A DNA stretch of 64,000 nt, taken from the IMG/VR virus record IMGVR_UViG_3300015607_004593, positions 157,971 through 221,970 of that record; one strand, 5' to 3'. A model generated the notes under the pieces. The model was given only the letters and a program-made list of their open reading frames with translations, searched no databases and was not told the origin of the DNA. The position numbers and the translations under genes are program-made. This document shows positions 3,542 through 52,073 of the stretch, in pieces. The first letter of the stretch is position 1; each line of letters starts with the position of its first letter. The stretch comes from a virus (Duplodnaviria > Caudoviricetes).

Positions 3542-4075
3542 GTGCAGAAAGTATATAAACTAAAGAAGCCGGAAAAATATCTTGGAAATCCTTCTCTAAT
3601 CATTGCTCGTTCGTCTTGGGAATGGAGTTTTCTAAAATTTTTAGAAGAATCTCCAATGATAAAATATTTTTCATCCGAAGAATTAGCCATACCTTATTTT
3701 CTTTTGACAGATAAAAAGTTTCATAGATATTTTCCTGATTTTATTGTTGAATTAATAACAGGTGATAGATTCATTATCGAGATAAAACCTTTTGAACAGC
3801 GTATTTGTAAAAATAAAAGACATCAAATTATTTTTATTAAAAATCAATGTAAATGGCAAGCTGCAACTGAAGTTGCAAAAAACAATAATATTACTTTTAT
3901 TATTCTTGATCAATATGACCTTAGACGAATAGGAGTAAAGATTTCACTTTCATCAAGAAAAATACCTAAAGAAAAAATACTTTTTGAACAAACAGACCCT
4001 TACAGTAAATCCGTAGAAAAATTAACTACTCCTTTACTTCTTTTGGAAAAAGCTAAGAATGGCAAACAATCCTAG
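3542..4075 (+). CDS. gp4: Head completion nuclease gp4 (TnsA-like)
   Basis: PEKYLGNP, RSSWE, SSEELAIPY, HRYFPDF, IEIKP, NQCKWQAA. Confidence 0.9.
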   Translation: MQKVYKLKKPEKYLGNPSLIIARSSWEWSFLKFLEESPMIKYFSSEELAIPYFLLTDKKFHRYFPDFIVELITGDRFIIEIKPFEQRICKNKRHQIIFIKNQCKWQAATEVAKNNNITFIILDQYDLRRIGVKISLSSRKIPKEKILFEQTDPYSKSVEKLTTPLLLLEKAKNGKQS

Positions 4076-4754
4076 ATCAAAAACAGCGAATGATAATATA
4101 TTTGACCATAAAAATATAGATATTAATAGCATATCATCTGCATCATCTATTGTTTCTAAAATGGCAAAATATTCATTTGCTAGACAAAATAGATTTATTA
4201 TTGAATTTTCTTTACCTGTCTATGTTTATGAATATGTAAAATCAAGAGATAGCACATTTTCATCAGGTATTGATTCGGAAAGGTTTAGAGCTTTAAAATT
4301 TAATTGTCATAGGGCATCTACTCCCGATAGAAATATTTCAGTATTAGATATTAGAGATTCTTCACACAATTCTTTAGTAGCATCATTTGGTAGTTTGAAT
4401 AACACGATTTCTCTTTCTTTTATTTGTTTTGCAGATATGAAAGAAAAAGTTTTAATGGATTATTGGTATGAGTACATATTTTCTCAAGAATCAAGAACGA
4501 TGATGTTTTTAGATGACTATTCTACAACTATTACTATGTATCAATTAGATGGTAAAAATAAACCAACTTATGGAATAAAAATGCTTTCTGCTTTTCCTTC
4601 TAATGTCCAAGGTTCACAATACGACTATCAGCCTTCTTCTATGCCTGTTAATTTAGATGTAAGATTTACATTCTCAGAAATAGAAACATTTGATTATATT
4701 AATTCATCAAGAACTTCTGATAGTAAATCTTCTAACAGGTCGAAAATGATATGA
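4059..4754 (+). CDS. Baseplate tail tube initiator gp54-like (gp19 fold)
   Basis: ARQNRF..., ITMYQLD, AFPSNV...LDVRFTF tube-protein signatures; baseplate context. Confidence 0.7.
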   Translation: MANNPRSKTANDNIFDHKNIDINSISSASSIVSKMAKYSFARQNRFIIEFSLPVYVYEYVKSRDSTFSSGIDSERFRALKFNCHRASTPDRNISVLDIRDSSHNSLVASFGSLNNTISLSFICFADMKEKVLMDYWYEYIFSQESRTMMFLDDYSTTITMYQLDGKNKPTYGIKMLSAFPSNVQGSQYDYQPSSMPVNLDVRFTFSEIETFDYINSSRTSDSKSSNRSKMI

Positions 4755-18823: not shown

Positions 18824-20011
18824 CTATTTTTTCCATGAGGTTTGATCAATAGTTTCTAAACCTAATTTATTTAAAATGAAAGAAAGTGTTTCCTTGTTTT
18901 TAAAAACAAAATCAGAATGAATAATAAAATCATTTTTTGTTAAAGAATTTATTAGCTCCTTCTTTGAAAGAGAAGGATTGAAAATTTCTTTAACTTCTTT
19001 TTCAGATAATTTTAAAATATCATCCTTTGAAAAAATCTTTTTTTCATGAAAAGAAGATGTTTTAGGAGTTATATTTTCAAATATCTTAAGAAGTATTAAA
19101 GCCTTTGGATTTAACCAAAGAGCTTGTGTTTTAACTTTCTCATGAATTATTCCATATCCGGGATCAATCAATCCTAAAATTTCTAAATCTTTAAAAAGAA
19201 TTGATCTCCACTTTGTTGTATTGATATTACTATGAAGAGATTTTTCTGTGAGATAAAGAGAAAGTATTTGAGTAAATGAAAATAACTTTGAAGCAGGTTT
19301 TTCTTTATTTAATTTATAGGTATCTAAGATAAAAGAAGAAAATTCATCCCAAGATTTAAATTCTTTTTCTCTAAATCCTTTTCCAATGATAAATCCATAA
19401 ACAACATGCTTAAAAGATTTTTCTGAATTTGAACCTTGAGAATCTAAACCTTTCAATAAAATTTCTGTTCTCCATGATTCTTGTTTTAATTTTTTATAAG
19501 CCGGGTCTGAATATGGAGTTTTCTTTAATTTATCTTCTATGAAAGATAGAAAACTTTTAACTCTCGCTTTCTTTTCTTCTCTTTCTTCTTCTCTTTCTTC
19601 TCCATGATTCAATGATTGATTGATAATCATAGATGAATAGATAGATTCTAATCTTTTTAAATCTTCTTTAAAATCATCTTCTGAATAAGAATCAAAATGA
19701 ATAATTCTTTTTGATGTATCTTTTACAATAAAAACACAAATAAACTCTGCTTTGTTTTGAAAAGGAATAGAAGAAAAATCTTTTGTTTTTTTAATAGAAT
19801 CAAAATAATATTGTAAAGGATATGAATAGATTCCAATAGGAGTTTCATAATAACGATTAATAGGATTAATACCTAATTTATGTACATTTGTAAATGTAAA
19901 ATAAGTTGTCTTAGGGTCACAAGATAAAAGATAATCAATAACTGATTTATCCTTTGAAAGAACAAGTTGTTCAGGACTTCTTTCTAAGAGAAATACTTTA
20001 AATGTTTTCAT
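18824..20011 (-). CDS. Hypothetical protein, candidate internal head protein
   Basis: N-terminus MKTFKVFLLE resembles the T4 capsid-targeting sequence. Confidence 0.5.
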   Translation of the reverse strand: MKTFKVFLLERSPEQLVLSKDKSVIDYLLSCDPKTTYFTFTNVHKLGINPINRYYETPIGIYSYPLQYYFDSIKKTKDFSSIPFQNKAEFICVFIVKDTSKRIIHFDSYSEDDFKEDLKRLESIYSSMIINQSLNHGEEREEEREEKKARVKSFLSFIEDKLKKTPYSDPAYKKLKQESWRTEILLKGLDSQGSNSEKSFKHVVYGFIIGKGFREKEFKSWDEFSSFILDTYKLNKEKPASKLFSFTQILSLYLTEKSLHSNINTTKWRSILFKDLEILGLIDPGYGIIHEKVKTQALWLNPKALILLKIFENITPKTSSFHEKKIFSKDDILKLSEKEVKEIFNPSLSKKELINSLTKNDFIIHSDFVFKNKETLSFILNKLGLETIDQTSWKK

Positions 20012-29340: not shown

Positions 29341-29545
29341 GATTGGTTGAGGTAAAAAAAACTTATTTTCTAAAAAATTTTCCTAGATAATTTTCTCTTA
29401 GAGAAAAGGTTTTCAGAACACACCAATAACAATTAAAAACAATTTTTAAAAGTGAATATAAGGAAAGGATACAAATATAAAAAGAAAAAATTATAAAATA
29501 AATGATTAATACAATAAAAGAAATTAATAATTCCAACATCTTGAT

Positions 29546-29654
29546 AAAATCTCCTATTTTCTTTTTTTGCCCTAAGAAGTTTTCTTAGGGCAAGATTATG
29601 ATTTAAAATCTCCTATTTACCCTAAGAAGAAGTTTTCTTAAGGCAAGATTCTGA
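29546..29654. repeat. Tandem duplication of a ~50-bp hairpin+RBS unit
   Basis: AAAATCTCCTATTT...CCCTAAGAAG-TTTTCTTA(G/A)GGCAAGATT.TGA occurs twice. Confidence 0.7.
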
Positions 29655-29815
29655 GATTACAATCGCCGGGTCATATCCTTCAATATGATTGTCCAATAAA
29701 AACAATGACAAAACTCTCACCATAAAATCCTAGAATTTTTCCTTTTTGTTGATCTAAAACTTCATCATAAACTTTCATGGTTTAACTCCTAAAAAGGAAA
29801 AGGAAAAAGGAAAAA

Positions 29816-30013
29816 TTACTTTTCAAACTGAACCCATTGCACTTTACAAAACAATCTAATCCATCTAGGTAGAGTTAGAAGAACATATTCTTCTAATATA
29901 CCTTTATTATATTTTTTTATTGAATTGTAGAAAAATACTTCATAGATTTTTAATCTAAAGATGCCTAAGAAAAATATCTCTGACCTAAATCTGAAATCAT
30001 TCTCATTTTTCAT
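29816..30013 (-). CDS. Hypothetical protein
   Basis: ORF with AGGAG RBS. Confidence 0.45.
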   Translation of the reverse strand: MKNENDFRFRSEIFFLGIFRLKIYEVFFYNSIKKYNKGILEEYVLLTLPRWIRLFCKVQWVQFEK

Positions 30014-30027
30014 TTATAGCTATCTCC

Positions 30028-30216
30028 TTAAGGTTTTACTTCATAGAGTGAATTAGTTAAAAACAAAAAGGAATAGAACAATGCAGAAAAAAAGGGAAAG
30101 GTGTTTGTTATCCACATGATTAGAAATATTCCTATTGGAATATAAAAAATCATCCACATAGTAATTTTTTTCTTGATTATAGTTTTTTTCATAAGGTTTA
30201 ACTTTCCCTCACACAT
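30028..30216 (-). CDS. Small membrane protein
   Basis: Two hydrophobic stretches. Confidence 0.45.
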   Translation of the reverse strand: MCEGKLNLMKKTIIKKKITMWMIFYIPIGIFLIMWITNTFPFFSALFYSFLFLTNSLYEVKP

Positions 30217-30407
30217 AGGAACTATTTAAAAAATAAACAAATTTCCTACTAGGCTCCCTAGCGAGATATAACTAGGGTAGGTTTTAACATAAGTATAGTG
30301 AATTTTTTTTAAAAAAACAAGCCTTGGTGAAAATTTAAAAAATAAATTATTTAAAAATCAATAAATTAATAAATAAATTTAACTTTTTAAAAAAGAAAAA
30401 TATATAG

Positions 30408-30758
30408 ATGAACAATTTTAATACACTTCAAGATTTTAAAGAGAACAAAAACAAGTTTGAAATTCTCACTCCTCAAGGATTTAAAACATTCAAGGGTTTG
30501 AAGAAAACAAAATCTTCATTTCTCCTATCAATAGAAACATCTTCAGGAAAAGTTTTAAAGGGGTCTTTAGACCATCAAATAAAATTGTATAGAAAAAGGA
30601 AATTTACAAAATTCAAAGATATTAAGGTTGGGGATATGATTTCAAAAGAAGAAAAGGTTTCTTTCATTTCTGTTTCTTCAGGAAAATATGATTTCTTTAC
30701 TGTTCAAAGTGTTGATGGTGAAGAATATTTGATTGAGAATGAATTCATTTCAAAAAAT
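30408..30758 (+). other. Split intein C-terminal half (117 aa, atypical TerL type)
   Basis: EILTPQGFKTFKG, block-B-like SLDH, IKVGD, ends ISKN followed by Cys+1; resembles AceL-TerL/Cat C-inteins. Confidence 0.85.
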
Positions 30759-32978
30759 TGTGCTTTTATTCCTTCAAATATTTTTGATGAATTTTGGTCA
30801 TCTGCAATTCCAACTATTTCATCGGGAACAGAAACAAAAATCATTGTGGTTTCTTGTGTTACAAAAGATACATTTATCTTAGATACCAATCGTGGTCTAT
30901 CTACTATAGAAGATTATATAGATTATACAAAAGAAAATAAGAAACCATATTCTATAGAAGAATATTCTATCCAAGGATTTAATGATTCTCCTTCAAAGGG
31001 AATAACGTTTTTTAATAATGGACTTCACCCTACAATAAAATTAAAGAGTAAGTATTTTGAGTTAGAATGTTCAGAAAATCATCCTCTTTATATTTGTTCT
31101 TCTTCAGGAGAATTTGATTGGAAGAAAGCAAAGGATATTAAAACAGGAGATTATATTTGTGCAAAATATAGGAATAATATTTTTGGAAGTAATGATGTTT
31201 TATCATCTTCAAAAATAACTCTTACTCCTGATATTTGTTATTCATTAGGATTAATAATTTCAGAAGGAATTTTACCTGAAAATAAAGAATATATTCTTCT
31301 TCCTAAAGATATATTAAAAGAATTGAATATTAAGAATGAAGATATTTCTTCAGAACAAAATAAAGAAATCCCAAAGAGATTAATGTCAATTTCTAAAGAA
31401 AATTATTATTCTCTTCTTTATGGTATTTTTGATAGCAAACATTGTCAGATTAAGAATTCAAAGGTTTTTTATTCATCTTATTCAGAAAAAATTATCAATC
31501 AAATAAGAATGATGCTTAATAATTTAGGAGTATTATCTTCAAAATCAAAAGATCAATTTGGTTGTTATACTCTTGAAATTTATCATTGCCTATATCCATT
31601 CATTGTAGAAATAGGGTCAAAATTAAAAAGAAAAGAAGAAGAACTATTTTCTCTTCTTCAAACAAATAAAAAAATAAAGTCAAAAGACGATATAATTCCT
31701 TTTTCTTTTGAACTATTTTACCCTTTCTTTAAAAGAAATAATATAAGAAATTGTCATCCTATCAAAGATAAAAAACATCTTTCAAGATTAGATATTTTAT
31801 TATTCAAAGAACTTTACTATGAAACTATTCCAGAATTGAAAGACTTTTTTGATAAGCATGTTCATAGTAATCTTTTTTGGGATAAGGTTAAAGTCATAAA
31901 AACTTCTTCTTCTGAAACTTTTGATTTTTCTCTTCCTGATAAAGAAAATGATTTTTGGTGTCATTCTGTTCTTTATAACAATATTGTTGGTCATCAGACT
32001 TCAAATGGTTTAAATCATTACTATACACTTTGGAATGATGCTATAGAAAAAAGAAATGGTTTTGCTCCTTTTAAAGTTGATTGGTGGGATGTGCCCGGTA
32101 GGGATGAAGCATGGGCAAAAGAAATGAGGGCAAAGGTAAAGAAATTTGATCAAGAATTTGGAAATGAATTTTTCGGAAGAGAAACATCTGTTATTCCAAC
32201 AGAATTATTAAAGACTTTAACCTACAGGCCACCTATTTCTTCTAATGAAGAAATGAAGATATTTGAATTGCCTCTGAAAAAAAGAAATTACTTAGGGATT
32301 GTTGATGTTGCAGAAGGATTAGGAGGGGATTATTCTGTACTTACTATAATCAAATTACCACAAAAAGAAGATGAACCTTTTGAAGTTGTTTTTACTTTTA
32401 GGTCAAATACTATAGATGTTTTTAAATTTACTGAAGTCATTTTTACATTCTCAAAGAAATACAATGAATGTTATTTGCTTATAGAAATTAATATGATGAA
32501 TGTTGCCGAACCTCTTTATCGAGATTATGAAGTTGAAAATATTATTAAAACAACAACTTCACATCAAAAAATGACAACAACATTTTTTTCGGGTGGGTCA
32601 AAGCTAGGAGTTAAGACTACTGAGATTGTTAAAAAGGTAGGATTAGAGAAATTAAATCAATTGTTTGAAGAAAAGAAATTGATTGTTAATGATTTTACTT
32701 TTATAGAAGAGTTATCAACACTTCAAAAATCAGGAAAAACATTTAAAGCAAGATATGGTTCTTCTGATGATACATCTATGACACTTATTCTTTTTGCATG
32801 GCTCTTGACACAAGAGGGGTTTAAAGAATTATTTGGAATGGAAGAGTTTAAGACAAAGTTAAACAATGAATATCTTGAATCTATCTATTCTACTCTTCCA
32901 TCCTTTTTTATTGAAGATGGTTTAAATGATAATTTAAACCATTTTAAAAATGAAGATAGTATTAACTTGTTTCGTTAG
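30408..32978 (+). CDS. gp17: Terminase large subunit gp17, C-terminal fragment: split-intein C-half, 32-aa extein, cis intein, then ATPase end and nuclease domain
   Basis: CAFIP...FWSSAIPTISSG.ETKIIVVS | TSNGLNHYY, VPGRDE, FDQEF, DVAEGLGGDYS, DD motifs match T4 gp17 from just after Walker B. Confidence 0.93.
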   Translation: MNNFNTLQDFKENKNKFEILTPQGFKTFKGLKKTKSSFLLSIETSSGKVLKGSLDHQIKLYRKRKFTKFKDIKVGDMISKEEKVSFISVSSGKYDFFTVQSVDGEEYLIENEFISKNCAFIPSNIFDEFWSSAIPTISSGTETKIIVVSCVTKDTFILDTNRGLSTIEDYIDYTKENKKPYSIEEYSIQGFNDSPSKGITFFNNGLHPTIKLKSKYFELECSENHPLYICSSSGEFDWKKAKDIKTGDYICAKYRNNIFGSNDVLSSSKITLTPDICYSLGLIISEGILPENKEYILLPKDILKELNIKNEDISSEQNKEIPKRLMSISKENYYSLLYGIFDSKHCQIKNSKVFYSSYSEKIINQIRMMLNNLGVLSSKSKDQFGCYTLEIYHCLYPFIVEIGSKLKRKEEELFSLLQTNKKIKSKDDIIPFSFELFYPFFKRNNIRNCHPIKDKKHLSRLDILLFKELYYETIPELKDFFDKHVHSNLFWDKVKVIKTSSSETFDFSLPDKENDFWCHSVLYNNIVGHQTSNGLNHYYTLWNDAIEKRNGFAPFKVDWWDVPGRDEAWAKEMRAKVKKFDQEFGNEFFGRETSVIPTELLKTLTYRPPISSNEEMKIFELPLKKRNYLGIVDVAEGLGGDYSVLTIIKLPQKEDEPFEVVFTFRSNTIDVFKFTEVIFTFSKKYNECYLLIEINMMNVAEPLYRDYEVENIIKTTTSHQKMTTTFFSGGSKLGVKTTEIVKKVGLEKLNQLFEEKKLIVNDFTFIEELSTLQKSGKTFKARYGSSDDTSMTLILFAWLLTQEGFKELFGMEEFKTKLNNEYLESIYSTLPSFFIEDGLNDNLNHFKNEDSINLFR
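30855..31997 (+). mobile_element. Cis intein (381 aa) with degenerate LAGLIDADG domain, Gln C-terminus
   Basis: Starts CVTKDT, block B CSENHP, LGLIISEG / LYGIFDS, TFDFSL, ends VGHQ before Thr+1; removal restores KIIVVS-TSNG. Confidence 0.9.
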
Positions 32979-33100
32979 AAACGATACCATCTTTCAATGC
33001 TGTTTCTGAAACTTCACGCGCAACATACCGCTTTATTCAAGAGATTTATGATTATTTTTTTAACTCATGATTAGGTTAAGTATGTCGCGCCGTGTTTGAG

Positions 33101-33493
33101 TTAGGAACTAAGTCCGTTCCAATAATTACAAATTTGCCCTGCTCCAAATCTGTAATCTTTACAATCATTACATGCTACACGCCATTCAGGGACGCCTCCA
33201 TCCTCAACCCAATTTGGCGCTCTTGGTAAAAACGTTGTTAAAAGTACATCGGCTATTACATCTTGCCGCGATTGTGCCCATCGTCTAAACGTTTCAACCA
33301 ATAAAATGATTGACCCATCCGATTGTCTCCCAAGTGGTAAACAAGAGTGGGCTAGGGTGGTTCCGCGCCGTCCGCCGATGCTTACTTTAATAGTAAAAAA
33401 TTCTCCACGCAAAACGGCATTTTTGATGGCCGACATTTCAGCCTCGTGGCCTGTAATTAACATCATGTCTCTATCCTTCACTTTGGTTAGCAC
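33101..33493 (-). CDS. Hypothetical protein of foreign composition
   Basis: 130 aa, higher GC than flanks, own promoter. Confidence 0.55.
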   Translation of the reverse strand: MLTKVKDRDMMLITGHEAEMSAIKNAVLRGEFFTIKVSIGGRRGTTLAHSCLPLGRQSDGSIILLVETFRRWAQSRQDVIADVLLTTFLPRAPNWVEDGGVPEWRVACNDCKDYRFGAGQICNYWNGLSS

Positions 33494-33514
33494 CTATCGC
33501 TAACCTTCGTATAT

Positions 33515-33543
33515 ACTATATCAGTATCGTATGTACGATACAA
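33515..33543 (-). promoter_or_regulatory. Sigma70 promoter with overlapping palindromic operator
   Basis: TTGTAT-17-TATAGT; GTATCGTA-TG-TACGATAC at 33524-33541. Confidence 0.65.
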
Positions 33544-33635
33544 GAGGTTTTAAAATATTTTTAGCAAAAGAACATGGTTCTCTATGAAATAATTTCATAA
33601 TTCATAGATTATATATCCTTTTATGATGATTGTAA

Positions 33636-33664
33636 CAAAAAAGCCGCCCTTTACGGACGGCTCA
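33636..33664 (-). terminator. Intrinsic terminator
   Basis: GCCGTCC-GTAAA-GGGCGGC-TTTTTT on the minus strand. Confidence 0.7.
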
Positions 33665-33742
33665 TTATTTCTTCGTGGTTCATCAAGATTTTTCTTGATG
33701 AACAAAAATTCCTCAAAATATTTTTATTCTTACTTTATTTTT

Positions 33743-34774
33743 TCAAAGTAATAAGTTGGAATCCGCGCCTTTTGATGAAGCCGCCCGTTCCCGACGGACG
33801 GCTTCATCAAGTTTTTCGGCCTCGGTTCGCGCTTCAACGGGAGTGCCTAATCGGTGATTAGACAAGTTCATGCTCCCTCCACGCGCAAGCCCCACCTCCC
33901 CGGCGGTTGCAAAGCTCAGGATATTCCGGGCCGCGTTCACGTCGCGGTCATGGCGTGTTCCGCAATCGGGGCACGTCCATTCCCGAACCGAGAGCGGCAT
34001 GGTTTCTCGGTAGCTCCCGCAATGGGAACAGGTCTTACTGGTCGGCGCAAAGCGGTCGGCGATGATGACTTTGCGTCCGTACCACGCCGCTTTGTATTCA
34101 ATCTGCCGCTTGAACTCGCCCATCCCGACATCGGCGATAGCGCCCGCCAAGGCGTGATTCTTCATCATGCCGCACACGTTCAAATCTTCCAGCTCGGCAG
34201 CAATTCGGGCCTGTTCGGCCTCGTGGGCTTGCTGCTCAGCCAGCAAACCCGCCAGCGTTTCAAGTGTTTCGGTTTTCGCGGTTTCAGCGACGGCTAGGAA
34301 CTCCGAGAACTCAACCGCCGTGACGGGAACGGCGCGAACCTTCACCATCAATTCAGCGGTAAAGCTAGGCGGCTTGTTGAACGCCGCCGTCACCGCGCCG
34401 CGCATCGCAGTGATGCGGTTTTGAATCTCCGCAATCCGCGCTTGCTCAGCGCGCTCTTTCGCGGCCCGCTCTTCCGCCTTGCGGGTTTCCTCGGCTTTAA
34501 TCACCGCATCAATCGGTTCCTCAATCGCCAACAGTTCAGCGGTAATCCGTTTCGCTTCCGCATCAATCAAGCGGGTACGCTCCAGCGCCGGGGCTTTGAT
34601 TTCAACTCGAAGTTTCTCCAGTGAAACCCGGTAACTCCGCACTTCGGCGCGGGCCTCGCGGGCCGCGTTCAAACCTTTCGGGGTCGAAACGTCAAACACG
34701 GTGTTGTATTTATTACGAAGCATCGCAATCGCGGCGGCGGTTTCGTTGTATTCGGTAATCTGGTATGCAGTCAT
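33743..34774 (-). CDS. Chimera: prophage-type coiled-coil protein fused in frame to the TnpB C-terminus (RuvC-II, Zn ribbon, RuvC-III)
   Basis: Ala/Glu/Arg-rich helix, then LEDLNVCGMMKNH.LA.AIAD, EYKA.WYG, PTSKTCSHCG, WTCPDCG..HDRDVNAA.NI. Confidence 0.85.
   Translation of the reverse strand: MTAYQITEYNETAAAIAMLRNKYNTVFDVSTPKGLNAAREARAEVRSYRVSLEKLRVEIKAPALERTRLIDAEAKRITAELLAIEEPIDAVIKAEETRKAEERAAKERAEQARIAEIQNRITAMRGAVTAAFNKPPSFTAELMVKVRAVPVTAVEFSEFLAVAETAKTETLETLAGLLAEQQAHEAEQARIAAELEDLNVCGMMKNHALAGAIADVGMGEFKRQIEYKAAWYGRKVIIADRFAPTSKTCSHCGSYRETMPLSVREWTCPDCGTRHDRDVNAARNILSFATAGEVGLARGGSMNLSNHRLGTPVEARTEAEKLDEAVRRERAASSKGADSNLLL
33772..33810 (-). other. Right-end hairpin / omegaRNA 3' stem of the TnpB element
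   Basis: TTGATGAAGCCGTCCGT-CGGGA-ACGGGCGGCTTCATCAA, about 20 nt inside the terminal TTAC. Confidence 0.65.
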
Positions 34775-34817
34775 GGCTCTCTCTCCCAGGTGTGCGCCGT
34801 CCGTGGCGCGGTGTGGG

Positions 34818-35387
34818 TTAATTCACTTGCCGTTCTTCCTGCTCATCGTCGGAATCCTTCTTATCTTTCTTGTGCTCGATAAGCTGGATAACGTCGGCGG
34901 TGCGCGTTAATTGCTTTCGCAATTCAATGATGGCAGGTGCATATTTCCCCTCGTTCGCTACTTCAAACTCGACGGCAAAATACGGCTTGCCTTTCGCCAT
35001 ACTCGTTCGCTTGTTCATCCGTGCCGTAATGACTTTACCGAGTAGGCTTTGCCCTTTCAGCAAATAGGAGCGGCGCAATTCGGCGAAATTGTCCATGCTC
35101 TCGGTTTTGAACAGGATGGAAGATAGAACGCCGTCCGGGTCAATGAACACGATGCCCAGCCAACGCTGCGGCTTGTAGCCGTAGAACTCGCCGTCAAAGA
35201 GGGCGCAACACACCATCTCCATGTCTATCTTGGAACCTCTGAGGATTGTCGAGCCAATCTTGAATTGTCCGACTTGGCAGTCCGGTCGCCATTGCCGCAC
35301 CGAATCCGCGAGAATTTGGCCGGGCTGTAAGGGGGTTACATCCTCAAGGTCTAAATCAACCTCTGGTCTCATGTCTTTTACCCTCAC
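34818..35387 (-). CDS. Cargo hypothetical protein (possible ssDNA-binding/recombination function)
   Basis: GC-rich, translationally coupled; KGKPYFAVEFE and charged tail. Confidence 0.55.
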   Translation of the reverse strand: MRVKDMRPEVDLDLEDVTPLQPGQILADSVRQWRPDCQVGQFKIGSTILRGSKIDMEMVCCALFDGEFYGYKPQRWLGIVFIDPDGVLSSILFKTESMDNFAELRRSYLLKGQSLLGKVITARMNKRTSMAKGKPYFAVEFEVANEGKYAPAIIELRKQLTRTADVIQLIEHKKDKKDSDDEQEERQVN

Positions 35388-35587
35388 GAATTCATTTCAA
35401 CGGCTTCAAAGTCCCACGGCTCCATAGCGTGAAAGCCGTTCCTCATGAAGCGATCCCGTGCGGCTTCTTCGGCAAGCCATTCGGAACCTTCGTGACTGGA
35501 TAGCCACGCATGAAACGCGGCGCGGTCGGCATCCTCGGCAGCCCAAAGGCTCGCGAGAGCTTGCGGTGTTTGCGGTGTTTGTTGCAT
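35384..35587 (-). CDS. Cargo hypothetical protein
   Basis: 67 aa, AGGA RBS, overlaps next start. Confidence 0.5.
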   Translation of the reverse strand: MQQTPQTPQALASLWAAEDADRAAFHAWLSSHEGSEWLAEEAARDRFMRNGFHAMEPWDFEAVEMNS

Positions 35588-35655
35588 GATGTGATTCCTG
35601 TTGATTGGGTTTGCTGGCCGCTCTCGTTGCTAGTAACAACGAGAGCGGTTTTCTT

Positions 35656-35943
35656 TTAGGCGACACGCCGCCAGCGTTCTTTTCTTTCGTCCTCTGCTTT
35701 CGCCCGTTCGTCGGCTCGTATCTCGTTGGCGATGGCATCCATCTGTTCATCGTCCATCATGGAAATCATGTCCAGCTTGATGATTTCGATGTGCGGTTTG
35801 TATTCGCCTTGTGCATTGTAGTAATGCTTGATGCCCCGCGTGATGGAGACGGACTGAATATCTATTTCATCGTCAATCCAATCCCATTCGACGATTGCTT
35901 TATAAAGGGCACCGTAAAACTCCATCTCGGTTTCAAAGGACAT
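35656..35943 (-). CDS. Cargo hypothetical protein
   Basis: 95 aa, AGGAGG RBS. Confidence 0.55.
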   Translation of the reverse strand: MSFETEMEFYGALYKAIVEWDWIDDEIDIQSVSITRGIKHYYNAQGEYKPHIEIIKLDMISMMDDEQMDAIANEIRADERAKAEDERKERWRRVA

Positions 35944-36394
35944 ACTCGCCTCCTAGAAGTGAAAGAACGGTTGATTGCTCCCTGATTGCGCGTCGGTTTC
36001 TCCCTTTTACGCCGCCGCTATAGGTGCTTTTGATATGGCGTTGATCGAGTTGATAGCGAACCGCTTGCTTGTCCCCCTTCGATTTGAAGCGTGGATACTT
36101 GCCGCGCTTTTCAAAGAAGTTTTTGAACGCCTTGTCTTGATCTATCAGGGCTTGGATCAAGCATCCGGCGGTTGCATCGGAAAGCCATGGGAAGTCCGTT
36201 TTCTTCCAAACCGTCACTTGCCGTCCGAGAGAAACGTAGTTGTGCTTCTCTTGGCGTTCTTTCCAAGCCGTGCTTCGCAACTCCAAACAGCGGTTCCAGA
36301 CAAAACGCACACAACCGAATTCCACCGCAAGTTGATGACGCTGTTCGGCGTTGGGGTAGATGCGGAATTTGTAGGATTTCTGTTGAGTGATCAT
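35933..36394 (-). pseudogene. tnpB: TnpB N-terminal fragment (HTH/REC), truncated near 36010
   Basis: KSYKFRIYPNAEQ, FGCVRFVWN, PWL, AFKNFF...YPRFKSK; promoter TTGCAT-17-TAATAT at 36402-36430. Confidence 0.85.
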
Positions 36395-36467
36395 GTGTGC
36401 TATATTAACTAACCCTTCGTTAATATGCAAGCGAAAATTCGCCATGAAAAACCGAGGAGAAGAGACT

Positions 36468-36795
36468 GTAACCCTTTATCAAAAACATCATCTAAAAGAT
36501 GATGTTTTTCCTTTTGTGTTTTCTTTCGTCAAAGAAGAAGAAATGATGTCTACCTCTCCTGAATAAGAGGAAATTTAAATAGTTTCTGTTTTAAACAAAA
36601 GTGTCTTAGATAGAATAGATTGAAGTTTAGAAGAAAACATCATTCCACCTTGAAGGATAGTTACAAACAAAAAATCTTCTTTTTCTCTTTTTTTGTAGCT
36701 AAAGAATAGATTATTTCTTTAACAAGTAATTCTGAAAATAAAACTTGTGAATTTCCATACATTTCTTGAAATTTTAATTGAGATAATTTAGGCAT
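36468..36795 (-). pseudogene. Decayed purine phosphoribosyltransferase (Hpt-like) interrupted by the TnpB element
   Basis: Across frameshifts and a stop: FLFVTILQGGMMFSSKL...ISSYSGEVDII...KGK...LDDVFDKG; continues VTLKK beyond the far element end (~33747). Confidence 0.6.
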
Positions 36796-37036
36796 GGTAA
36801 GGAAGTAGTTTTTGTTGTTCAGGAAAAGAATCAAGTGGGGGAAAGAATTTTTTGAAAGCTACAGAAAACGATGAAAAGAGTTGTATTTTTTCTTTGCAAT
36901 GAAAGCATTGGCATACAGTTTCCATTCTTTCTGATAAGTCATCATTTGTTCTTGTAGTCCTTTGACATGAAGAACATTTGATATGCCACAAAAAACCACC
37001 TTGAATATTTTCTACAGAAATCGTTCCGAATGACAT
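36788..37036 (-). CDS. Small Zn-finger protein
   Basis: CSSC...CQCFHC. Confidence 0.5.
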   Translation of the reverse strand: MSFGTISVENIQGGFLWHIKCSSCQRTTRTNDDLSERMETVCQCFHCKEKIQLFSSFSVAFKKFFPPLDSFPEQQKLLPYHA

Positions 37037-37039
37037 TTT

Positions 37040-37206
37040 TAACCCTTTGTTTTTAAAACGAAAATTAAAAAAATGAAAATTTTGAAAAAAAAGAGTACCT
37101 AGACTACCACCCCTTAAAAAAACGTAAAAATGACCCTTGTAACTCTTTGAATTAAAACAAGAAAAAAATTAAAAAAATTCATTTTTTGGCAAACCTAGAC
37201 TTTTTT
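37040..37206 (-). repeat. Dispersed intergenic repeat, copy 2 (inverted)
   Basis: Reverse complement matches 17913-18079; lies directly downstream of the gp17 N-fragment. Confidence 0.9.
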
Positions 37207-37225
37207 ATTTTTCTCCTCCTTTGTC

Positions 37226-37594
37226 TTAATTTTCAGTTAATGAAAGTAACAATCTCTCATAGAGTTCAGAAATTAAAATTTCTTTTTCAATTCCTTCATC
37301 ATCTTTGATAGTAATTTTAGTTTCACCTGAAACACATTTTCCCGTTTGACGAGAAGAAAGAATAATAGAATGTCTATTATCATTTAAATGATTCAACATT
37401 CTTTTTTGATAATCATAAAGTTCTATAGAAATAAGACCTTTATCGGGATGAACAACCTTTATATAATTCTGAACAAAGTAAGTAACATCATTAGCACATT
37501 TTATATATTCTTGAATTTCCTCTTTAGTATATTCATGATATACATTATGTTTTTTTAAATCTAAATTACCTTTATAGTTTTCATTTATAGGCAT
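37226..37594 (-). CDS. gp17: Terminase large subunit gp17, N-terminal fragment, plus 36-aa split N-intein
   Basis: YKGN..LKK, EYIKC..D..YF..NYIKVV..DKGL, LYDYQ (Q motif), Walker A SRQTGK, then CVSGETKITIKDDEGIEKEILISELYERL*. Confidence 0.93.
   Translation of the reverse strand: MPINENYKGNLDLKKHNVYHEYTKEEIQEYIKCANDVTYFVQNYIKVVHPDKGLISIELYDYQKRMLNHLNDNRHSIILSSRQTGKCVSGETKITIKDDEGIEKEILISELYERLLLSLTEN
37229..37336 (-). other. Split intein N-terminal half (36 aa, atypically short)
   Basis: Cys1 block A CVSGET.I, I.ISELYERL, then stop. Confidence 0.88.
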
Positions 37595-37684
37595 TTTCTA
37601 CATTTTCCTTTTGTTTATTTTTTAAATTTTCTTTAAAAGAAAGGATTGAAAGATTCTTTATTCTTTCAATCCTTTTAAAATACT

Positions 37685-38752
37685 TTAATGAATAATATTT
37701 TGTTGTTCTATATGACCTATTTCTTTAACTTCATAAGAAGAAAAATTATAAATGTATTCTTTTATTTTTTCTTTATAAAAGGGGTCAACAATCAATACTA
37801 ATCCTATACCCATATTAAAAACTCTAAACATTTCTTCTCTTGATATATTTCCTTCTTTCTGAAGAAATGAAAATATTTCAGGAATTTCCCAAGAATTATA
37901 ATCAATAGAAGCATAAAGATTAGAAGGAATAGCTCTAGGTATATTTTCTATAATACCTCCACCAGTTATATGAGAAATGCCATGAATCTTAAATCTTAAG
38001 TTTCCATGGTCTGCTTCAAAGAGTAGATAAGAAATAAGATTTGAATAGATTGTTGTTGGAGTAAGTAAGATTTCACCTAAAGATTTTTCTGAAAAAGAAA
38101 AAGGTTTTGAATTTAAATCTAATCCTTTTTCTTTTATAATGTTTCTAACAAGAGAAAATCCATTAGAATGAATTCCTGAAGAACTTATCCCAAGAATAAT
38201 ATCTCCTTCTTTAACTTCTAAAGAAGGTTGTAAAAGTTTTGATTTTTCTACAATTCCAATTCCAAACCCAACAACATCAAAATAATTGTTTTGAAAAAAT
38301 CCAGGCATTTCAGCCGTTTCTCCACCTATCAGATAACAATCGGCTAATTCACATGCTCTTTGAATTCCTGATAACAAAGTCTTAAGATTTCTTTCTTCTA
38401 AATTTGAAAATGAAATAGTATCTAAAAAGAAACAAGGTTTTGCTCCTGAACAAACAATATCATTAACAACCATTGCAATAAGGTCTTGACCTAATGTTTC
38501 TAAAGAATTCATCTCAACTCCGATGGCAATCTTTGTTCCGATTCCATCTGTAGAAGTAATTAGAAGAGGGTCTTTAAATGTTTTAGGTATAGATGAAACA
38601 GCATTAAATCCACCAATTTCAGAATGAATAAAAGATGGAATTCCTCGTTTCTTTTCTGATTCCTTAATGAAATTTACAATTCCATTTCCAAGGTCAATAG
38701 ATACTCCTGCTTTTTCATAAGCAGAAGAAAGATAGTTTACAATGTTATTCAT
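37685..38752 (-). CDS. purM: Phosphoribosylformylglycinamidine cyclo-ligase
   Basis: YEKAGV, IGGF, STDGIGTK, GGETAEMPG, SSGIHSNGFSL, HITGGG, VFNMGIG. Confidence 0.96.
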   Translation of the reverse strand: MNNIVNYLSSAYEKAGVSIDLGNGIVNFIKESEKKRGIPSFIHSEIGGFNAVSSIPKTFKDPLLITSTDGIGTKIAIGVEMNSLETLGQDLIAMVVNDIVCSGAKPCFFLDTISFSNLEERNLKTLLSGIQRACELADCYLIGGETAEMPGFFQNNYFDVVGFGIGIVEKSKLLQPSLEVKEGDIILGISSSGIHSNGFSLVRNIIKEKGLDLNSKPFSFSEKSLGEILLTPTTIYSNLISYLLFEADHGNLRFKIHGISHITGGGIIENIPRAIPSNLYASIDYNSWEIPEIFSFLQKEGNISREEMFRVFNMGIGLVLIVDPFYKEKIKEYIYNFSSYEVKEIGHIEQQNIIH

Positions 38753-41283: not shown

Positions 41284-41565
41284 TTAAGCTGTTCTTGGTG
41301 TAAGAGGGTCAAAATCAAAATCATCATTTTGTCCAATGAGTAAATAAGGGTCTTTAATTTTTATAAAACGATGATTTTGAGCTTTAACTCCACCTATGAA
41401 TGTAAAAGAAAAAGAAGGAAAATTAACATCTTCTTCTTTATTGATTACTCTTTTATTATTATTTTCAATCCTTTTATTCTTTTCTTTCTTTTGAAAAGAA
41501 TGAAAAATAACATTTCTTTTTTTCTCTTCTGTTGCTTCTTCTTTTTCAGGAATGTCTTGATTCAA
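41284..41565 (-). CDS. Hypothetical protein
   Basis: ORF. Confidence 0.35.
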   Translation of the reverse strand: MNQDIPEKEEATEEKKRNVIFHSFQKKEKNKRIENNNKRVINKEEDVNFPSFSFTFIGGVKAQNHRFIKIKDPYLLIGQNDDFDFDPLTPRTA

Positions 41566-41770
41566 GGTTTATCTCTTATATAAAGTTTAATAACAAGAAT
41601 TTGTTTTATTAAAGGTAGAAGAAAGAATCCATCCTTTAGGATTACTTTCTGATAATTGATTTACTCTTTCTTTTAATAATTCAATTTCAGACATAAGATG
41701 TTTAATAGTCTCTGATAATGATAATAAAGAAGTATTAAATTCTACATTTTTTTCTTGATTCATTTCTATT

Positions 41771-42010
41771 TTAATCCTTTTTTTCTTTTTCTTTAAAAAA
41801 TAAATCTACTAAAGAGTTTAATTCATGAATGTTGATAGTGAGAGTAACATTTCTTTTTTTAATCTTAATACATTCTTCTTCTTCACTATTAAATCCTTGA
41901 GTCTTAAAAAATTCAGACAAAGCCCAAAGAAGAGTTTCTAGTTTATCTTTTTTAAAATAATCTAGTTTTTTAATCTTTAACACATGAGTAGAAGAAGAAT
42001 GTTTTTTCAT
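41771..42010 (-). CDS. Hypothetical protein
   Basis: ORF in operon. Confidence 0.45.
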   Translation of the reverse strand: MKKHSSSTHVLKIKKLDYFKKDKLETLLWALSEFFKTQGFNSEEEECIKIKKRNVTLTINIHELNSLVDLFFKEKEKKD

Positions 42011-42030
42011 ATAAACTTTCCTTTCATTTC

Positions 42031-42351
42031 TTAGGAATGAGTTTTCTTAGAAATATGAAGAAGAATCTTATTTCCTAAATCATTTAGAAACTTTATATCT
42101 AATGATTTTAGATATTCTTCTTTCCTAGAAGAATAGAATTTATTCATAAACATATCTCTTAAAGGGACTGGTGTAATAAATCTTCTATCTCTATAAAGAG
42201 ATTCTAAAATGAAATGATAAAGATATTCAGATTCTAATGATATATTAAAAACTTTATTAGCAAAAAAAATACTTTTATGATTGAGAAGAGGAAGAATAAA
42301 CTTTTTTTCTTCTTCAGAGAAATAAGAAGTATATAAAAACGGCATTAACAT
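42031..42351 (-). CDS. Hypothetical protein
   Basis: ORF in operon. Confidence 0.45.
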   Translation of the reverse strand: MLMPFLYTSYFSEEEKKFILPLLNHKSIFFANKVFNISLESEYLYHFILESLYRDRRFITPVPLRDMFMNKFYSSRKEEYLKSLDIKFLNDLGNKILLHISKKTHS

Positions 42352-42365
42352 AGTTTAATTCCTTT

Positions 42366-42650
42366 TTATTTAAAATCATCTCGTGTATAACAATTATTTA
42401 CAAGATAAGACCCTAACCAAGATGGACATGGTTTTAAGACAGATAATGATGTTTTAAATTGAGAAATCTTTAAGGCTCCTTTTTTTCCGAGAAAAAGAAA
42501 AAATGAATATTTCTTATTTTTAGGTTTAATGACAAAACATTTATACTTTTCTTTCATTTCTTCTTCAAGGTCTGTTTCTTCATGACAAAAAAACAATTCA
42601 TGTTCTTCTTTAGAAGAAAGAAAGATAGAAAATTTATCTATTATTTTCAT
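42366..42650 (-). CDS. Hypothetical protein
   Basis: ORF in operon. Confidence 0.45.
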   Translation of the reverse strand: MKIIDKFSIFLSSKEEHELFFCHEETDLEEEMKEKYKCFVIKPKNKKYSFFLFLGKKGALKISQFKTSLSVLKPCPSWLGSYLVNNCYTRDDFK

Positions 42651-42722
42651 TTTAATCTTATTTTTTATTATTTTATCATCAATAATTTAAAATTCAAGAG
42701 CTTATTATAATTATAGTAAAAA

Positions 42723-42730
42723 TATAAATA
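42723..42730 (+). promoter_or_regulatory. T4-type late promoter
   Basis: TATAAATA about 50 bp upstream of 42781; gp33 present. Confidence 0.55.
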
Positions 42731-42780
42731 ATTTATAAAAATAATTTAGGGTATCTCTTAGAGAAGGAAAAATAAACATC

Positions 42781-43404
42781 ATGAGTCTTTATAAGCAATT
42801 TAAAGAATTTTTAAATGAAGCTAGGTCAGATTCTATTGTGTATGTAAGTAAAACTAAAGCGGGAAAGAAAACAGACGACCCTTCAAAAATTGTAAAAGTT
42901 GAAGGAGAATTATATCCCTCAAGAGGAATCGTTGAATATGATGCTCTATCAGAAATAGCAATCTTACTTGAAGAACAAAAATAACTTTCTATAAAACTTG
43001 AGAAAGCGAAAGAAGATGTAAGAGTTTACATGGAAGATTTATTTGATCTTCAAGATAAACTTTATACAAGAGTTTTGAAAATAACAAGAATTCATAATAA
43101 TGTTGTTTCTGAATTGAAAGTTACTATGACTAAAGAAACAGAAAGAACATCTATTGATTACAAGGCATTTATTAATGAATTGAAAGAAACATTTGTTGAA
43201 TTATCTGTAGATATAGATATTCTTTTGAATAAGTATACATCTATTACAAAAATTGCAGCGGGAATAAGAATGGAATTAAATGAATTAAATGAGTCAATTG
43301 TTTCAACTATAAAAGCATCATTCAAAAAATTAATTTCATACTTTGAAGGTAGATTTAAATTGTATGATAAGTTTATCAACAAGTATAAAAAATATGAAAA
43401 ATAA
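42781..43404 (+). pseudogene. Candidate internal head protein gene interrupted by one in-frame TAA (42982-42984)
   Basis: The 67-aa and 124-aa ORFs share a frame and the linker is open (LSIKLEKAKEDVRVY); N-terminus KQFKEFLNE. Confidence 0.65.
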
Positions 43405-49015: not shown

Positions 49016-49369
49016 TTACATGATTTGAAACTTCATGTGTGGGGAATTTATCGCCAAATCAATAATTTTTTCCGCGTTGGCCGGGGTAAAAACTTCAATA
49101 ATTTTTTCGCCGATTTTAAATTTACCCTTCAATTTCATCAGACGTTGTACAAGGGCTTCTTTTACTTTCAGAAAATCTGAACTCTTAAATTTCGCAGCGG
49201 GTTTGAATGTAATTGTACTTTTATCAGGAGATACAGAATAGTATAAATCAGAGGTTTGAGGTTGAACAGCAGAAGCTGGTTTTTTATCAGGAACTTTCTC
49301 AAAATCCCTTGCCCATTCTAAATCAGACCTATCAGCTTCTAAAATTAAAAATTGTTTAAATGTCATCAT
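49016..49369 (-). CDS. Candidate internal head protein
   Basis: MMTFKQFLILE N-terminus; AATAAATA upstream. Confidence 0.5.
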   Translation of the reverse strand: MMTFKQFLILEADRSDLEWARDFEKVPDKKPASAVQPQTSDLYYSVSPDKSTITFKPAAKFKSSDFLKVKEALVQRLMKLKGKFKIGEKIIEVFTPANAEKIIDLAINSPHMKFQIM

Positions 49370-49991
49370 TGTAGTTTATTTCCTTTTTATAATGATTAAA
49401 AATCCTAATCTTTTTTATTAATGAGAATTGTAATTTATTTATTTTCTTCCAAATTGTAAAAGACAATCCCATGAAAAACATAAATTATTATTTACATAAA
49501 ATAAATTTGAGATAGTAGTGTCTTTTTCAAACATATTATGAAGTAGAATTATCTCAATAAAGATGATGAAAAGAAAAAAAAATCATTCCTATATTTTTTA
49601 TTTTCAAAAAAGAGTCCTTTCTTTTTAAGAAAAAAGAAAAGGGAAATACTAAATTAATAGTATTTCCCTTTTTCATAATCATTCTAAATCATGGTAATTG
49701 ACAATAGTAATTGAATCTTTATCAAGAGAAAAAATATCAATAGATTTAAATATGTCATACCCAATAGATAGGTCTAATATAAAAAATACAAACAATAAAA
49801 CAAACATAGTTTTCTCAAGTTTACTCATAACAACTATCTCCTTTCTTCAGGTTAAAAAGACGGGTTTAAACATTTTTCTCTTCTCTATATTTAAAAAATG
49901 AATAACACAAGAAATATAAACAATAAAACGAACAAAATGATTTTTTCATAGTTAGTCATAACAACTATATCCTTTTTTCTCTTTTATGACA

Positions 49992-52073
49992 TTATTGTAC
50001 AACATCTTCAATATAATCTATTTGTTCTTTAGTCAAAGAGAAATATTCAAATAAATCTTCATTTGACCACATTCTACTCAAATCCATTTTAGGTAAAAAT
50101 CTAAGTTGTAAACCATCTAATGTTCTAGAAGTAAATGTTTTTAAGAAGATAGCTAAGAATAATTTACTTCTAAAAAGACTTTCTAATACTTTACCTTCCA
50201 TTTCATTTTCAACAATCATTGATCTATAAATTTTTCCTGTAGAAACACCCGGCGGACAATACCAAATAGATTTTAAAACATCAGCATTATAACCATGGAG
50301 ATAACGAGCTATAATTTTATGTTTGTCCGTATGTTCTCCTCGAAAATTTCCTTTTTCAATTCTACAATAATGAGGATTTATTAATGTCACCATTTGACAA
50401 TCCTCTTCAACACATTCTTCAGGTTTAAACAAATAATCACTCTTACTAAAATAATCATTTGAGAGTTTAGAAGAAATATTAGAAATGATAGACTTTAATA
50501 TTTCTTCTTTAAAAATAACATCATCAACTTTACAATTATAAGATTTATTTAAATTTACAACAGAAGTATTTTCAATATCTTTTGATGCTTTATCTACAAT
50601 AAAATAAAGTGTAGTTTGTTGAATAGGAAATGTTGATTGTGGAAGAAAAACTACTTTTGATAAACCAAGCCTTATTAATTTTTTTCTTAATTCAGAATAA
50701 CGTTCAGAAACAGCAAATGATTGAGTAACTACCATTGAAAAAATACTATCTTTCTTTAAGAGAGGTAAAGAAATATCTATAAATTTATCCCATATAACAT
50801 TTGCTGCTTTTGAACCATCCGTGTAAGGGGGATTTCCCACAACAACATCAAATTGTTTTGAACCTAGATAAAATGAATCATCTAATGAGTAAGGATTATT
50901 ATCATCCAAAAGAATAACCTCAGAAAAATAATTTAATGATTTAAGAAAAGAAATATAATAAGGATTACTTTCTATTAAAGTAATATTAGAATCAGGATAT
51001 TTAACTTTAAGTAATAAAGGTAATATTCCTGAAAGAGAATTCCATACTAATATATTTTTTCTTGGTTTTCCATCCTTTGATAGAGAATCAACTATTTCTT
51101 GAGCTAAGGTGAAAGGAATATATACTGTTTCTGTTTCTATTTTCCATGAATAATTTATTGAATAACTTTTTACAAATTCTATTATATCAGAAAGAAATAA
51201 AGATTTCATTTCTGAATATTTTTCTTCTAGTTCTCCAAGAAAAATAGAATAAAGGTTTTCATCAGAAAATAAGTAATTAAAATTAATTATTCCTAAGATA
51301 GTAGGAAACAATCTAAATGAATCTAATTTTTCATTTCCTGAACCATTTTCTATAATTTCTTGAAATGATTTTTTATTCATGATTCCGTAATAAAGTAATT
51401 CTCTTAAAAAGATATGAAACCTTATACTATGATTTGAACAATCATCTTTGAATAAGGAACAATCAATTTTTCTTTTTTTATCAAGGTTTAATACATCTTT
51501 AGCAGATTCAATAAAATTTAAACTATCACCATTACTTTTTTGATTATAGAAATGAGTAGAATTATTCAAAAAAATAGAACTTCTTCTCACATTTTCAAGT
51601 TGAAAAAGTTCATTTTCTCTATTTTTTGCATCTTGAGGAAAAAGAAAACATCTATCTATGCCTATAAAATCAGGTGGCCCATCAATATTTCTCTTTTCTT
51701 TAACATCCTTTGAAGAAGTAAAATAACTATTAAACAAATCAGAGGGGTATCTGTTAGTAGTTGATACCCCTATATACTTTATATTATCTTTTTTCCAAAG
51801 AAGTCCATAAGTATAACAAATTCTATCTATCTTATCCCCGAATATTTTTTTTATTTCATTCTTTGAAAGATGAACCATAGCAAAATCATTTTCGTAATCC
51901 ATACCAAGAATTTTAGCAGCTTCTTCTAATGTAGTATCTTCATTAAAAGAATTTAATATAATTCCTTTTTTTAAATGAGAAAGAAATAAATCAGGGTTTT
52001 TGGGAATTTTAATAAGATAACTTGCTCTTGGAAAAATATAAGTGTAAAAACTATTTTCAAATGCAAAAAACAT
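49992..52073 (-). CDS. Amino-DNA methyltransferase (Eco57I-like) with N-terminal GIY-YIG-like domain
   Basis: FDVVVGNPPY, WDKFI; N-terminal YTY.L....KYIGV...YFTSSKDVK. Confidence 0.75.
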   Translation of the reverse strand: MFFAFENSFYTYIFPRASYLIKIPKNPDLFLSHLKKGIILNSFNEDTTLEEAAKILGMDYENDFAMVHLSKNEIKKIFGDKIDRICYTYGLLWKKDNIKYIGVSTTNRYPSDLFNSYFTSSKDVKEKRNIDGPPDFIGIDRCFLFPQDAKNRENELFQLENVRRSSIFLNNSTHFYNQKSNGDSLNFIESAKDVLNLDKKRKIDCSLFKDDCSNHSIRFHIFLRELLYYGIMNKKSFQEIIENGSGNEKLDSFRLFPTILGIINFNYLFSDENLYSIFLGELEEKYSEMKSLFLSDIIEFVKSYSINYSWKIETETVYIPFTLAQEIVDSLSKDGKPRKNILVWNSLSGILPLLLKVKYPDSNITLIESNPYYISFLKSLNYFSEVILLDDNNPYSLDDSFYLGSKQFDVVVGNPPYTDGSKAANVIWDKFIDISLPLLKKDSIFSMVVTQSFAVSERYSELRKKLIRLGLSKVVFLPQSTFPIQQTTLYFIVDKASKDIENTSVVNLNKSYNCKVDDVIFKEEILKSIISNISSKLSNDYFSKSDYLFKPEECVEEDCQMVTLINPHYCRIEKGNFRGEHTDKHKIIARYLHGYNADVLKSIWYCPPGVSTGKIYRSMIVENEMEGKVLESLFRSKLFLAIFLKTFTSRTLDGLQLRFLPKMDLSRMWSNEDLFEYFSLTKEQIDYIEDVVQ

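Follow-up and report, generated by a model that had tools for sequence, protein, structure and literature searches.

The large terminase (gp17 homologue, TerL) of a phage T4-like virus from wastewater is very probably encoded by three genes at separate places in the genome, with products that are linked post-translationally by protein trans-splicing. Two of the three genes lie in the 64-kb stretch of DNA analysed here (the window), which is the final part (bases 157971-221970) of a 221,970-bp IMG/VR virus record, and the third lies outside it in the same record. The phage has a GC content of ~27% (73% AT), and its sheath, portal, prohead protease, scaffold, and gp23 genes stand in the usual T4-like order. 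The anatomy of the three terminase genes, their colinearity with intact terminases, their conservation, and the lack of any other terminase gene in the record were established directly; from these we infer that splicing occurs. Positions outside the window are given in the coordinates of the record (G000:C1), and a slash marks a splice junction or insertion point.

Anatomy of the three terminase genes

The gene for the N-terminal piece (N-piece) is an open reading frame (ORF) of 122 amino acids (aa) at window 37226-37594 on the minus strand. Its 86-aa extein (37337..37594, minus strand) corresponds to T4 gp17 86-166, residues 6-86 of the piece aligning on that segment in alignments with PDB structures (3ezk numbering), and it ends in the Walker A sequence SSRQTGK. 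In place of the Walker A Thr, the frame continues into CVSGET, the start of a 36-aa N-terminal intein half (IntN-1; CVSGET...LTEN, first residue Cys; 37229..37336, minus strand). Residues 87-115 of the piece match CatN (6DSL_A, E 0.009). Split intein 1 is inserted at gp17 K166/T167, in Walker A. The partner of IntN-1, the C-terminal half IntC-1, lies outside the window (G000:C1:12071-12376, minus strand).

IntC-1 belongs to the middle gene (377 aa; G000:C1:11243-12376, minus strand), which was found between the tail sheath and portal genes by a Terminase_6N search of the whole record. Residues 1-102 of its product are IntC-1, ending in ILSHN, and residues 103-186 are an 84-aa extein (STISAIF...RGMPIS, gp17 167-250). 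A cis-splicing mini-intein of 155 aa (intein A; CVSIDSF...VNVHN) occupies residues 187-341 and is inserted at gp17 A250/M251, just before Walker B. It is followed by CLFIDE (residues 342-347), which holds Walker B and the catalytic Glu (gp17 251-256), and by the 30-aa IntN-2 (residues 348-377; CLHEET...LYLTL).

The C-terminal piece (C-piece; 856 aa; window 30408-32978, plus strand) is convergent with the N-piece. It opens with IntC-2 (117 aa; 30408..30758), which ends in FISKN with Cys as the +1 residue. Residues 10-118 of the piece match CatC (6DSL_B, E 4.8e-5), and the partner of IntC-2 is IntN-2, outside the window at G000:C1:11243-11335 (minus strand). Split intein 2 is inserted at gp17 E256/C257, just after the catalytic Glu. 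The penultimate residue of IntC-2 is Lys (SKN/C), not His, and this Lys-Asn is kept in 4 of the 4 C-pieces found. Behind IntC-2, all on the plus strand, stand a 32-aa extein (CAFIP...KIIVVS; 30759..30854), a second cis intein (intein B; 381 aa, CVTKDT...VGHQ; 30855..31997) with remnants of a LAGLIDADG-type endonuclease, and a C-extein of 326 aa plus stop (31998..32978). The C-extein starts at TSNGLNHYY and comprises what remains of the ATPase together with the RNase-H-like nuclease domain. The same PDB alignments place the two exteins on gp17 257-286 and 287-563. Intein B begins with Cys, ends in GHQ, and is followed by Thr at +1; it sits in motif III, at gp17 T286/T287, and in a relative that lacks it (P0129) KIIVVS and TSNG are joined without a gap.

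A first-pass annotation, made from the window alone, had read the same two genes: a 122-aa N-piece running from Walker A SRQTGK into a 36-aa N-intein, and a C-piece opening with a 117-aa C-intein ending SKN and followed by CAFIP. Both are borne out by ORFs at these positions with matches to CatN and CatC. The annotation was also correct that gp17 167-256, including Walker B, is missing from the window, since the alignments of the N- and C-pieces leave exactly that gap, and that the later EFE-CEF site is uninterrupted (QEFGNEFFG is intact in the C-piece). It had predicted a third gene elsewhere, laid out as IntC-[S...DE]-IntN and ~230-250 aa long. That gene exists, in the same record, but the length was wrong: the product has 377 aa because of the extra 155-aa cis intein, without which it would have 222 aa (the versions in relatives have 214-241 aa). 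Likewise, of the two trans events and one cis event that were expected, the layout for two trans events stands, while the cis inteins are two, the 155-aa one in the middle gene and the 381-aa one in the C-piece.

Conceptual reassembly and the proposed splicing route

Conceptual joining of the exteins gave a 534-aa terminase that is gapless at all four junctions when compared with four intact terminases and T4 gp17. In this chain Walker A, Walker B with the catalytic Glu, motif III, and the C-terminal nuclease domain are colinear with gp17 86-563, and Terminase_6N and Terminase_6C matches are present in the pieces. All four inteins fall within 120 residues of the ATPase core. When an intact homologue (P0051, 551 aa) was used as query, it gave four matches in the record, covering its residues 7-93, 87-193, 178-212, and 211-540, on three genes only. 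An intact second gp17 elsewhere, which the annotation had kept in view, was not found in the record by this query; there is one complement, spread over three genes.

The four inteins carry the residues of class 1 inteins. IntN-1, IntN-2, intein A, and intein B all start with Cys, and the intein ends are SHN/S (IntC-1), SKN/C (IntC-2), VHN/C (intein A), and GHQ/T (intein B). A Gln ending and a missing penultimate His are less common class 1 variants. In the route that we propose, cis inteins A and B would excise themselves, IntN-1 would dock on IntC-1 and IntN-2 on IntC-2, and each pair would form a HINT fold split after its first ~30-36 residues. Class 1 splicing (Cys1; Ser+1 or Cys+1; terminal Asn) would then join GK-S and DE-C, with a 534-aa ATPase-nuclease as the end product. 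If IntN-1 paired with IntC-2 instead, Walker B would be lost from the product; if IntN-2 paired with IntC-1, the middle piece would become a circle or a concatemer.

Conservation in relatives and in nature

Near-identical copies (99%) of each of the three proteins were found in other assemblies. Across 16 middle pieces that are 47-63% identical, the block B His (His40 of IntC-1), the block F Asp, the terminal Asn, the Ser/Thr at +1, and the Glu-Cys at the IntN-2 junction are invariant; across 4 C-pieces, so are Asp-His (Asp55-His56 of IntC-2), Lys-Asn, and Cys+1. The middle piece stands alone between sheath and portal here and in the relatives that carry P0006 (on a 338-kb contig) and P0002. 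P0002 is a middle piece 63% identical to the one described here, and a C-piece start 62% identical to ours (P0128) comes from the same two samples on a different contig. Two further relatives, L092 and IMG/VR record G001, have a convergent C-piece and N-piece next to purM/thyX and lack a middle piece in the vicinity. These two relatives with the same convergent layout, together with contigs from independent studies that cross the junctions, make a misassembly between the pieces, a concern of the annotation, unlikely. Wastewater and activated-sludge runs from several studies (2015-2021) hold the stretch between the terminase pieces, so the phage persists in nature although its terminase gene is essential.

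A profile of the middle pieces was searched against 1.84 billion cluster representatives (clusters at 50% identity) and gave 5,073 hits at E up to 0.001. An N-terminal IntC together with a C-terminal IntN was present in 33 of the 150 best cluster representatives. The second split of these 33 lies after Walker B (13 of them), before or within Walker B, or at the later QE../C site; middle pieces of other phages (P0143-P0288) have it before Walker B (RG.S.N/C), inside it (..LLY/C), or at QE../C. At least four different second split sites occur among metagenomic middle pieces. Judging from these predicted proteins, three-piece terminases are a design that recurs among uncultured phages. In record G003 (L104) the split at DE/C simply yields two pieces, which flank a 379-aa ORF. 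A set of 50,697 deposited phage genomes contains none that covers at least 80% of the middle piece or of IntC-2 with its extein; in deposited genomes the same two sites hold contiguous inteins inside single terminase genes.

Comparison with known inteins and fractured genes

Both halves of both split inteins match CatN or CatC of PDB 6DSL (chain A, E 0.009; chain B, E 4.1e-5 and 4.8e-5), and their lengths (36/102 aa for intein 1, 30/117 aa for intein 2) are those of an atypical split, with a short IntN and an IntC of more than 100 aa. Similar to these, AceL-TerL, GOS-TerL, and Cat are atypically split, with an N-half of 25-37 aa and a C-half of 104-122 aa (PMC2677866; PMC11766414). The type of host protein, a T4-type large terminase, is also the same, the similarity to CatN and CatC is direct, and Cys1 is present. 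However, the AceL/GOS/Cat site is the later ..QEYN/CEF.., which is intact here, whereas our inteins lie at GK/S and DE/C; IntC-2 ends in KN instead of HN; and two inteins of this kind occur in one protein, so that the gene is in three pieces. The position of the known inteins at a later ../CEF site, as given in the annotation, agrees with the end of CatC (SHA/CESRG) and with IMG/VR locus L064, to whose C-half CatC of 6DSL aligns and whose terminase is broken at ..EQEYN/CEFLG with a GIY-YIG gene between the halves. The split inteins described here are therefore new alleles or insertion sites of the AceL/GOS/Cat family and not AceL/GOS orthologues.

In fractured genes, both split intein halves are on the same strand and flank a homing endonuclease gene (Dassa et al. 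2009, PMC2677866). As in this phage, a split intein there divides an essential phage enzyme between separate ORFs (PMC2677866). Unlike in fractured genes, the terminase pieces of this phage are distributed over both strands at distances of 4 kb and ~38-177 kb, and they have no endonuclease gene between or next to them. Relatives L064, L104, and L092 retain the classic fractured form, in L092 with a DUF559 gene. In cultured phages (Ackermannviridae such as Serratia phage 3M and Vibrio phage VAP7, and T4-like coliphages), homologous cis inteins lie at the same Walker A and DE/C sites, but a single gene of ~735-756 aa encodes TerL, its inteins being contiguous. Engineered tandem trans-splicing with two orthogonal split inteins (PMC12707363, PMC7090010) also joins three segments, the central one with IntC at its N-terminus and IntN at its C-terminus; those systems are laboratory designs with unrelated inteins, whereas the present one is natural and both of its inteins belong to the same atypically split family. 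The literature searched yielded no description of a natural protein that two split inteins assemble from the products of three genes, and a prior mention is possible.

A third split intein in gp46 and a nested split in a relative

In a search of the genome with hidden Markov models built from the intein halves, the matches were exactly three IntCs at N-termini and exactly three terminal IntNs. The third pair interrupts Walker A of the gp46 (SbcC/Rad50-like) ATPase (GFGK/C... and ...SHN/S) and belongs to the same atypically split family as the terminase split inteins. Its two adjacent genes (G000:C1:17427-19406 and 19474-19716, both minus strand) are separated by 67 bp, with no endonuclease gene in the gap; in the N-piece, a 40-aa extein with GFGK at its end is followed by a 40-aa IntN, and the C-piece starts with a 123-aa IntC that ends in SHN/S.

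In the relative L092 (Logan contig, L092:9061-10907), the N-piece itself is split a further time: a gene for an N-extein with IntN (131 aa), a DUF559/Vsr-like endonuclease gene (325 aa), and the gene for a 161-aa protein follow each other in a row. The 161-aa protein consists only of an IntC joined directly to the resident IntN (..ILSHN/CVLSDT..). This arrangement implies a four-piece terminase that would be made by nested, sequential trans-splicing, in which a preceding reaction would supply one N-intein.

Inteins are unusually numerous in this genome. Several Intein_splicing matches fall in an open frame of 2014 aa, and single matches are found in a UvsX/RecA-like gene and in two other ORFs; these further intein-bearing frames lie at G000:C1:26985-33026, 41437-42930, 49326-50741, and about 3955-4152, all on the minus strand.

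Surroundings of the terminase genes

Directly downstream of the N-piece lies a conserved Cys-rich ORF of 82 aa (36788..37036, minus strand), a synteny marker that is 58% identical to the ORF in the same position in L092. The interval from the C-piece to the N-piece contains a foreign island (33750..36450) of 50-65% GC (54% overall) in this 27% GC phage. It carries a TnpB in two parts, an N-terminal part at 35933-36445 and a C-terminal part fused to a DUF1351-like ORF at 33743-34774, which are separated by three phage-like ORFs of no assigned function. In relatives its place is taken by a phosphoribosyltransferase gene and small ORFs. The island is a real insertion and not part of the terminase system. 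Contamination or a chimera was considered as its source and rejected, because contigs from other studies cross both borders and its depth is like that of the flanks. A megablast search of the island against E. coli genomes and deposited phages gave no matches.

A repeat of ~145 bp is present in at least 9 copies (86-98% identity) and has very high depth in the source metagenome. The copies include those at window 37065-37211 and at G000:C1:17246-17386, 58618-58759, 70059-70205, and 118723-118895. One of them closely follows the TerL N-piece on its downstream side, and another follows the gp46 C-piece in the same way. It has no Rfam match, and its fold is no better than that of shuffled sequence (z -0.34). 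An Rfam scan of window 29500-38000 also gave no matches.

The T4 late promoter TATAAATA is not found upstream of any terminase piece. It is rare, with 8 occurrences in the genome, and its absence there says nothing on timing. The C-piece and the N-piece share an upstream AT-rich word of 18 bases, GAAAATTTAAAAAATAAA, at window 30334-30351 and 37618-37635, respectively (G000 188304 and 195596 in record coordinates). Its 13-base core occurs 8 times in a genome of 73% AT; the word may be a shared promoter, a candidate too weak to call.

Alternative explanations and specificity of the intein pairs

Several observations weigh against the proposed route. The record is linear without end repeats, and its completeness of 100% is a CheckV estimate; none of the RNA runs among those searched holds the region; the lack of a penultimate His in IntC-2 and the Gln ending of intein B can both slow splicing; IntN-1 and IntN-2 are 55% identical over 29 residues, with a common ..T.IT[IV]KD....SELY.. 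core; and, according to a review, the N-fragment of GOS-TerL can be exchanged for that of AceL-TerL (PMC11766414). A linear record without end repeats would fit decaying remnants in a defective or chimeric assembly, with a working terminase outside the record, and so would the 54% GC island between two of the pieces. However, every frame is open and no catalytic residue has been lost, each piece has its 99% copies in other assemblies, the same layout recurs in relatives at 45-63% identity, and contigs from independent studies cross both borders of the island. This explanation is disfavoured by the conservation data and we consider it very improbable. The fragments could also form a non-covalent complex in which the intein halves, which bind each other tightly, act only as docking domains and no splicing takes place. 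Cys1, the terminal Asn, and the +1 nucleophile are nevertheless invariant at both split junctions in all relatives, a pattern that makes sense only with splicing chemistry at work. One break falls within Walker A and the other immediately behind the catalytic Glu, positions at which a bulky HINT domain would obstruct the ATPase site, and the chance that docking alone accounts for the arrangement seems to us minute.

The specificity of the pairs is less certain than trans-splicing itself. The shared core of the N-halves and the GOS/AceL exchange make cross-reaction between the pairs possible, and in a study of 24 split pairs cross-reaction came mostly from atypically split short fragments (PMC7090010). 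The pieces could thus be trans-spliced by related pairs (two, or three with gp46) that are not orthogonal in sequence, the terminase being assembled through extein-guided docking, expression timing, cognate kinetics, or tolerated dead ends. The IntN of gp46, which has the same core, would fit this, as would the location of the middle piece in the late structural module and of the N- and C-pieces among genes of nucleotide metabolism. Against it, the C-halves make up most of the fold and are only 29-34% identical to each other (32% for IntC-1 and IntC-2). A tree built from 28 C-halves places the site-c inteins in their own clade (100/96), which groups with the L064 type (93/93), and the Walker A (site-a) inteins in two other groups, far from that clade. 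The persistence of the double-split design in many lineages also argues against heavy waste of an essential protein, and we regard a lack of orthogonality as rather unlikely.

Since mispairing would be destructive, selection for specificity is expected, and the divergence of the C-halves fits such selection. We lean slightly towards clean orthogonality of the two terminase pairs, in which each N-half would choose only its own C-half. A complex prediction with three chains in competition (IntC-1 and IntC-2, with IntN-1 as partner) scored 0.24, below the mark of 0.34, and favours neither pairing; no clear position discriminating site-a from site-c N-inteins was found among the N-halves, which include only ~6 site-a sequences. 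In a wider form of this idea, the three related pairs (TerL Walker A, TerL post-Walker B, and gp46 Walker A) would share one infected cell and be kept orthogonal by an evolved code of mutual recognition, and the L092 N-intein would arise from an earlier trans-splicing step, which would make an ordered four-piece cascade. We give this a little less than an even chance. If true, it would provide ready-made orthogonal pairs for ligation with short tags and the first natural multi-step trans-splicing pathway.

Significance

Split inteins are known in nature for joining two protein halves. Here two trans-splicing and two cis-splicing reactions would be needed, and the central fragment, with intein halves at both ends, has the design that protein chemists build by hand for three-segment ligation. 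The phage offers a natural set of related, coexisting split inteins with short N-halves, in which the encoding of split-intein specificity is directly testable, as well as candidate orthogonal pairs with N-tags of ~30 residues. For phage biology, the gene of a packaging motor can be scattered over the genome, and annotation pipelines will miss such cases.

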